Shown one piece after another: positions 8,173 through 8,265 of a DNA stretch of 29,483 nucleotides. Each line of letters opens with the position of its first letter. The stretch's first letter is position 1. The position numbers and the translations under genes were made by a program. This stretch comes from a virus (Monodnaviria; Loebvirae; Hofneiviricota; Faserviricetes; Tubulavirales; Inoviridae): the IMG/VR virus record IMGVR_UViG_2851976983_000002; one strand, written 5' to 3'. A model generated the notes under the pieces. It made no database searches. It saw only the letters and a program-made list of their open reading frames with translations, and was not told the origin of the DNA.

Positions 8173-8265
8173 AGTGCGCATAATGTGTTACACGTTATGT
8201 TGAAAAGGCCGCTGCGATACTCTCCACCGCAGCGGCCTTTTTACACATAACGTCATTGTGCGCAC
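8173..8265. other. attP-like region: two inverted dif-like sites flanking a GC hairpin
   Basis: AGTGCGCATAA-tgtgttacacg-TTATGTTGAAA (E. coli dif as recalled: GGTGCGCATAA-TGTATA-TTATGTTAAAT); hairpin GGCCGCTGCG/CGCAGCGGCC 8207..8237 plus T5; inverted site AGTGCGCACAATGACGTTATGT on the minus strand 8265..8244. Confidence 0.7.

Follow-up and report, generated by a model that had tools for sequence, protein, structure and literature searches.

The 94-nt cassette that marks the unit junctions of a tandem filamentous-prophage array from E. coli is very probably the attachment site (attP) of integrase-less filamentous phages which integrate at the dif site of E. coli in the fashion of CTXphi. Prophages with this cassette occupy dif, their crossover with dif falls into a short interval of the cassette, the cassette is conserved among related phages and folds into a long hairpin, and the sizeable ORFs of the phages contain no integrase. 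The site reveals no new mechanism; it extends the CTXphi integration strategy to a further lineage of filamentous prophages, which is common in enterotoxigenic and other E. coli.

A tandem array of two types of filamentous prophage

The window, by which we mean the whole stretch of DNA analysed here with its total length of 29.5 kb, is a head-to-tail array of four filamentous-prophage units from E. coli in the order A-A-B-B. The two copies of unit A (positions 1-8270 and 8271-16540) are 100% identical to each other, and unit B (16541-24562) is present in one copy followed by the start of a second B; taken together, the A-A and B-B repeats show 99-100% identity. Units A and B have a structural and assembly module in common, which is 92-99% identical in the segments compared and encodes a pIII-like coat protein, a pVI-like protein, the pI/Zot assembly protein and a pIV secretin. 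The left 2.6 kb are unrelated between the two units (1-2587 vs 16541-19171), so that the module swap extends from 4 nt past the attP cassette to about position 2588 in A and 19172 in B. In unit A this left module encodes a small RstR-like protein with 68% amino acid identity to a CTXphi RstR (about 70% at the DNA level) and a Rep_trans/RstA-like initiator with 33% amino acid identity to CTXphi RstA. The left module of unit B carries an Ff-type gene II protein, a gene V ssDNA-binding protein and a 181-aa HTH regulator. Matches in Pfam and PHROGs comprised Rep_trans or G2P replication proteins, gV, coat A, Zot, secretin and HTH regulators. Integrase, transposase or recombinase domains were detected with these two collections in none of the sizeable ORFs of either unit, which agrees with the original prediction that neither phage has an integrase gene. 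Toxin genes are not present in the phage.

Prophages with 100% identity to unit A occur in E24377A, 503025 and further E. coli strains, most of which are enterotoxigenic. The phage of unit A is carried by 82 of 5426 complete genomes, and strain 503025 harbours at least four tandem A units. The exact unit B is absent from the complete-genome collection, in which the best match reaches 94% coverage and 96% identity. A megablast search of both units against the phage collection returned nothing and a search for distant relatives yielded only rstR-like and small Vibrio phage matches; we therefore regard the array as belonging to a lineage without a representative among the deposited phage genomes. 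A literature search on the filamentous prophage of E24377A and ETEC found no description of it.

Anatomy of the cassette

At the A-A junction the complete cassette covers positions 8173-8266 of the plus strand, and it recurs identically over all 94 nt at the A-B junction (16443-16536) and the B-B junction (24465-24558). It begins with site 1, whose predicted XerC arm AGTGCGCATAA (8173-8183) is identical to the E. coli dif arm GGTGCGCATAA at 10 of 11 positions. The arm is followed by an 11-nt spacer, tgtgttacacg (TGTGTTACACG, 8184-8194), of which TGT corresponds to the first 3 nt of the dif central region, and by the predicted XerD arm TTATGTTGAAA (8195-8205), which matches dif TTATGTTAAAT at 9 of 11 positions. 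The distal GC hairpin (8207-8237), located at the tip of the predicted fold, consists of a 10-bp stem, in which GGCCGCTGCG (8207-8216) pairs with CGCAGCGGCC (8228-8237), and an 11-nt loop (8217-8227). Next to it lies the run TTTTT (8238-8242), which is complementary to the outer A-run of the XerD arm. Site 2 is inverted, occupies positions 8240-8266 on the minus strand and pairs with site 1 in the predicted fold; it is made up of a predicted XerC arm AGTGCGCACAA (8266-8256), the 5-nt spacer tgacg (8255-8251) and a predicted XerD arm TTATGTGTAAA (8250-8240), so that 34 nt (8206-8239) lie between the two XerD arms. After site 2 the units A and B have GGCC in common and then diverge completely at 8271 and 16541, respectively. 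Two inverted dif-like sites around a GC hairpin, two further copies at the other junctions and an immediate divergence of A and B past the cassette had all been part of the original prediction, and each of these elements was found at the three junctions as described. The right end needed correction, as the feature does not end at 8265, 16535 and 24557 but one base further, at 8266, 16536 and 24558.

The 13-mer GTGCGCATAATGT, which combines the XerC arm with TGT, occurs 8 times with at most 2 mismatches, compared to 0.78 occurrences expected. The XerD-arm consensus alone gives 9 matches where 12 are expected in the AT-rich window; only the combined site is significant.

The intergenic region to the left of the cassette in unit A (7596-8172, also 15866-16442) contains two diverged copies, 63-88% identical, of a unit of 270-305 bp, of which unit B has a single copy at about 24180-24464. 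Each of the copies includes an AT-rich hairpin bearing a T-run (7772-7803 and 8074-8111), and the repeat region may hold origin or packaging signals. The first copy ends with ...cacaacgccag, which are the bases preceding and entering the XerC arm of site 1. This end (...caacgccag, 7865) was considered as an old Xer junction and rejected, as the break lies 2 nt into the XerC arm and thus off the XerC cleavage position. The first copy also contains, on the minus strand at 7669-7681 (and 15939-15951), a degenerate XerC-arm-like 13-mer with 2 mismatches, GTGCGCAAATTGT, which is not conserved in the second copy.

Predicted fold of the single strand

Folded as single-stranded DNA, the plus strand from 8160 to 8280 is predicted to form one long hairpin with a dG of -43.7 kcal/mol (z = -11.9), while shuffles of the same stretch gave a mean of -14.4 kcal/mol and none out of 200 folded as well. 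The predicted hairpin comprises 38 bp and is interrupted by a 6-nt bulge TGTTAC on the 5' side and one bulged C on the 3' side, with an 11-nt loop at its end. The paired part of the central region amounts to 5 bp, one less than in dif. Of the long forked hairpin that had been proposed for the two sites, the length stands and the fork does not, the structure being a simple bulged hairpin. Because the minus strand folds equally well (-43.8 kcal/mol), thermodynamics express no preference for either strand. The nick sequence of the f1/Ff plus-strand origin was sought to define the packaged strand of unit B and gave no match, so that the plus strand is the putative packaged strand, assigned from gene orientation.

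Integration at the dif site

As the window has no chromosomal flank, identical prophages in other genomes were used to define the junctions. The prophage of E24377A and 503025, which is 100% identical to unit A, sits between hipBA and the ydeT/ydeS fimbrial genes, exactly at the position of the dif site in K-12; E24377A carries a single copy there. Flanks other than dif had been named beforehand as the finding that would speak against a dif-specific attachment site, and the outcome was the opposite. The empty site in K-12 reads ...ggtttatatt-GGTGCGCATAATGTATATTATGTTAAAT-catgtctgag, and resolved into its parts ...ggtttatatt GGTGCGCATAA TGTATA TTATGTTAAAT catgtctgag... In E24377A the left junction (attL) reads ...ggtttatact-GGTGCGCATAA-tgtgttacacg-TTATGTTGAAA..., in which the XerC arm of the host, with the host G at position 1, is joined to the spacer and XerD arm of the phage. 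The right junction (attR) reads ...caacgcc-AGTGCGCATAA-TGTATA-TTATGTTAAAT-catgtctgag and combines the XerC arm of the phage, with A at position 1, with the central region and XerD arm of the host, that is, a rebuilt dif. From these hybrid sequences it follows that the crossover took place within GTGCGCATAATGT of site 1, which contains the XerC cleavage position. Seven further attL copies from other E. coli strains have the same polarity. Site 1 and the central region TGTATA of dif have TGT in common, while on the XerD side ACG, TCG or GCG stands against ATA in dif. As the crossover with dif maps inside site 1, the evidence for an attachment function is direct.

Next to the prophage in E24377A and 503025, an internal deletion has left an N-terminal fragment of hipA (L002 3650-3910; L001 19307-19828), with the 3' end of hipA and the dif flank intact. 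Strain 90-9280, whose dif is occupied by a different prophage, has the complete gene.

Homologous cassettes and conservation of the pairing

Sequence collections were scanned with a pattern that fixed only part of site 1. The scan yielded 16 loci with one genome per species and 43 inovirus-sized contigs in IMG/VR. Among these, the locus from Y. pestis (L012) turned out to be the attP of YpfPhi. A prophage of E. coli 90-9280, with a replication protein of the gII/X family, DUF2523 and Zot, has a cassette of the same family. For the alignment 36 distinct homologous cassettes were taken from the one-per-species loci, IMG/VR and the E. coli hits; unrelated or ambiguous pattern hits such as those in SAR86 (L019) and Paralcaligenes (L015) were excluded. 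Pairs according to the window structure are formed in 94.8% of the cells of these 36 cassettes, a share that drops to 27-55% if the 3' partner is shifted by 1-3 columns. Compensatory double changes were found at four pairs (9 cells), and the covariation score was reached by none of 500 shuffles. This covariation signal is modest because most stem positions never vary, and inverted Xer-binding sites would be complementary even without folding. At position 1 an A-T pair in the window type is replaced by G-C in the YpfPhi type, a pair to be read with care because some of the G entries are host-derived arms at attL. Erwinia tracheiphila has G-C in place of an A-T pair of the XerD-arm stem.

TGT, positions 2-11 of the XerC arm and TTATGTT are invariant in the 36 cassettes but were all fixed by the collection pattern, so that only bases outside of this pattern are informative. 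The GC stem is nearly invariant, bulge and loop vary freely, and the T-run is interrupted in most homologues, including the YpfPhi-type cassettes. On either side of the hairpin, the phages cease to be similar 0-6 nt from its base. In Pseudomonas, Pseudoteredinibacter, an IMG/VR contig and an 8.4-kb "Actinomadura" contig both stems and the bulge are kept, with unrelated distal domains. Other E. coli cassettes show 83-94% identity over 8174-8265, and 33 complete E. coli genomes have at least 80% of the attP query.

Several of the matches lie in unexpected surroundings. A YpfPhi-type cassette reduced to its right two-thirds (remnant of the XerD arm, GC hairpin and site 2) is found on plasmids (e.g. 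L004 4001-4069, pLD22-1-135kb), adjoining a truncated IS200C and a gene of the STM4504 family, in several hundred E. coli plasmid records and at 485 plasmid places; this remnant looks like the fossil left end of a filamentous prophage. A circular record of 9613 bp from E. coli JNE25-005, annotated as a plasmid (L030, NZ_AP045060.1), contains a B-like phage with its attP at 1647-1742, an insertion of ISEc31 and many apparent frameshifts, and may represent a replicative form or result from misassembly of a tandem array. The contig labelled Actinomadura monticuli (L020, 8359 bp) has a gene for a Rep_trans protein that shares 55% identity with its unit A counterpart, together with an attP of the same architecture, and in a MAG labelled Candidatus Nanosynbacter (L014) an E. 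coli dif flank is followed by a YpfPhi-type cassette. Both look like contaminants of the assemblies, derived from enterobacteria or phages. In Rosenbergiella gaditana (L018) two different attP-type sites are located 2.7 kb apart, at 2557 and 5222, one with a distal domain like that of the contig labelled Actinomadura and the other a YpfPhi-like cassette, which suggests two different Xer-dependent elements stacked at one dif site.

Proposed mechanism and alternative explanations

For the integration of these phages we infer a single-stranded substrate, dependence on XerC and XerD, catalysis by XerC only, and irreversibility. In the packaged plus-strand ssDNA site 1 would pair with the inverted site 2 and form a hairpin in which duplex XerC and XerD arms enclose a central region, with 5 paired bases and the 6-nt bulge on its 5' side, and the GC hairpin forms the tip. 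XerC and XerD of the host would bind this hairpin as a pseudo-dif, and XerC would cut after AGTGCGCATAA and exchange one pair of strands with dif. The common TGT is expected to stabilise the strand exchange; the XerD side, which is without homology to dif (ACG vs ATA), would permit no second exchange, and the junction would be resolved by replication. On the left this would produce a dead hybrid site with an 11-bp spacer, and on the right a rebuilt dif with the XerC arm of the phage, which would be open to the next phage. Repeated integration would then give rise to tandem arrays such as A-A-B-B, with the full attP regenerated at every internal junction. Tandem arrays at dif would reflect the need to produce phage from a prophage that cannot be excised. 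An attP of this kind would explain both the mixed tandem arrays at dif and a chromosome that is left with a working dimer-resolution site. As the cassette is compact (94 nt) and exists in many natural variants, it is a convenient test substrate for single-strand recombination by XerC and XerD of E. coli.

An alternative is that site 1 recombines with dif alone, in the double-stranded replicative form and by means of XerC as in the VGJphi type, with site 2 and the hairpin uninvolved. The sequences of attL and attR are explained equally well in this way, and the arms of site 1 are good enough for it (10 of 11 positions for XerC, 9 of 11 for XerD). We nevertheless consider it improbable. Known Xer sites have spacers of 6-8 bp, against 11 bp in site 1 and 5 bp in site 2, so that neither site looks usable as a duplex; for CTXphi it has been stated on similar grounds that neither attP1 (12 bp) nor attP2 (5-7 bp) is suited to act as a duplex (PMC4246890). 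A bystander role of site 2 also fits poorly with the conservation of this site and of its pairing, including compensatory changes, and with a conserved block that stops exactly at the base of the hairpin. Moreover, distant relatives keep the inverted second site, whereas sites of the VGJ type are single.

The GC stem with its A and T runs could also act mainly as a bidirectional intrinsic terminator, or as a packaging signal or minus-strand origin, in which case the resemblance of the arms to dif would be incidental. A 10-bp GC stem is indeed followed by T5 on the plus strand and TTTT on the minus strand, and the cassette is located between convergent units (structural operon on the plus strand, accessory and repressor genes on the minus strand), downstream of gene IV. 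Ff phages have their packaging hairpin in the intergenic region downstream of gene IV. Nonetheless, the crossover with dif inside site 1 excludes such a function as the exclusive explanation. The terminator scan skipped the GC hairpin, whose 11-nt loop accounts for the missing call, but called the two hairpins further upstream at 7772-7803 and 8074-8111. The T-run is interrupted in cassettes of the YpfPhi type, and the A and T runs belong to the XerD arms, of which they form the outer portions. We thus give very little credence to a terminator or packaging signal in place of an attachment site; a secondary role of the GC stem as terminator is possible.

Least credible of all is that the internal attP copies arose by homologous recombination and amplification of an integrated prophage instead of successive Xer integrations: any tandem duplication reproduces the junction of its unit, the A-A and B-B units are 99-100% identical, and copy-number changes by homologous recombination were proposed for YpfPhi (PMC4266046), so that homologous amplification may explain the A-A and B-B repeats, but the A-B junction joins unrelated left modules exactly at the cassette, as expected from a second integration into the rebuilt dif and not from homologous amplification, and the question concerns only the growth of the array and not the nature of the site.

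The cassette as a possible mobile integration module

Cassettes of this family are found in the RstA-type unit A, the gII-type unit B, YpfPhi and CUS-1, and the gII/X-type prophage of E. coli 90-9280. In otherwise unrelated phages both limits of the similar stretch lie no more than a few bases from the foot of the hairpin, and the boundary of the A/B modules lies 4 nt past site 2. For these two reasons we tentatively put forward, while leaning somewhat against it, that the 94-nt hairpin could be a self-contained integration cassette that moves between unrelated inovirus lineages, with mixed dif arrays of the A-A-B-B type as the places where attP and the replication and immunity modules might be swapped.

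Comparison with known Xer-dependent phages

YpfPhi and CUS-1 have been listed as relatives of the CTX type (PMC4246890) and as enterobacterial elements related to CTXphi (PMC3442271); since they are filed as CTX-type, sites of this kind are known already, also from E. coli. Inverted XerC/XerD sites have been noted for YpfPhi (PMC4246890, PMC4266046, PMC3442271), which integrates at dif, rebuilds dif at its 3' end, has no integrase and forms tandem arrays of two to four copies (PMC4266046). Integration between resident copies, which is not predicted by the classical model, has also been reported for this phage (PMC4266046). The YpfPhi attP of Y. pestis NCTC5923 has the order GGTGCGCATAA-TGTACGACTCG-TTATGTTGAAAAGGCCGCTGCG-loop-CGCAGCGGCCTCTTTAGCATAA-CGTCA-TTGTGCGAACC. 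Like the window attP it has spacers of 11 nt and 5 nt and the same GC stem, and the two can be aligned over the whole cassette; identity to the window attP is about 85% for the YpfPhi attP and about 84% for YpfPhi-type copies from E. coli. Differences concern the sequences of bulge and loop and a single additional bulged C in the window cassette. All positions of the XerC-arm stem are paired in the window cassette (A1-T, G4-C), while a G.A mismatch at position 4 is conserved in the YpfPhi type. CUS-1 of E. coli O18:K1:H7 and YpfPhi of Yersinia pestis are 99% identical to each other. An assignment of the window phage to the group of YpfPhi and CUS-1 was rejected, as only pIV (51% amino acid identity) and pI (26%) match the YpfPhi locus in tblastn and megablast against the phage collection gave no hit. 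Judged by its sequence, the window phage is a separate lineage of E. coli filamentous prophages with a putative CTX-type attP homologous to that of YpfPhi and CUS-1.

Integration at dif by XerC and XerD of the host without a phage integrase is also known from phages of the VGJphi and TLCphi types. Phages of the VGJphi type can be excised and have one duplex attP, whose central region measures roughly 7 bp (PMC4246890), whereas two inverted sites and an 11-bp spacer are present in the window. With two inverted sites and an attL with an 11-bp spacer, the window phage was rejected as an element of the VGJphi type. The TLCphi type has a degenerate XerD arm and initiates with XerD catalysis (PMC4246890), in contrast to the good XerD arm of the window. 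The UPphi phages are IKe-like, integrate at dif and occur in Enterobacterales; the paper describing them reports a copy of dif only and makes no mention of an inverted second site (PMC7307601). They resemble the window in that prophages with tandem repeats are located at the E. coli dif, while their structural genes are unrelated to those of the window.

The closest parallel in architecture is the attP(+) of CTXphi from Vibrio cholerae, reportedly the subject of work by Val et al. in 2005 and Das et al. in 2010. CTXphi is an experimentally studied system, from which the proposed use of the single strand, the dependence on XerC and XerD and the irreversibility are carried over to the window phage. 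For comparison the CTXphi attP was taken from GQ466611.1 and folded. It consists of AGTGCGTATTA-TGTGGCGCGGCA-TTATGTTGAGG, about 90 nt, and the inverted AATGCGTATTA-CTCGCCA-TTATGTTACGG, with a divergent rstR, and its fold has an XerC-arm stem, a central region bulged on the 5' side, an XerD-arm stem and a forked distal domain. The window phage is set apart by its own pIV secretin, its E. coli host and the absence of toxin genes. Its attP is compact, with 94 nt compared to about 150 nt in CTXphi and 34 nt between the XerD arms compared to about 90, and its distal domain is a single GC hairpin instead of a fork. In both phages inverted dif-like sites have non-canonical spacers (12 and 7 bp in CTXphi, 11 and 5 bp in the window) and homology to dif is restricted to TGT on the XerC side. 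The attP has the same order, polarity and position, between the last plus-strand gene and the divergent rstR, and unit A has homologues of RstR (68% amino acid identity) and RstA (33%). The predicted folds agree in the XerC-arm stem, the 5'-side bulge and the XerD-arm stem. With the location at dif, the hybrid junctions, the spacers and the predicted fold all fitting, the CTXphi-style architecture that the original prediction had assigned to the attP is upheld.
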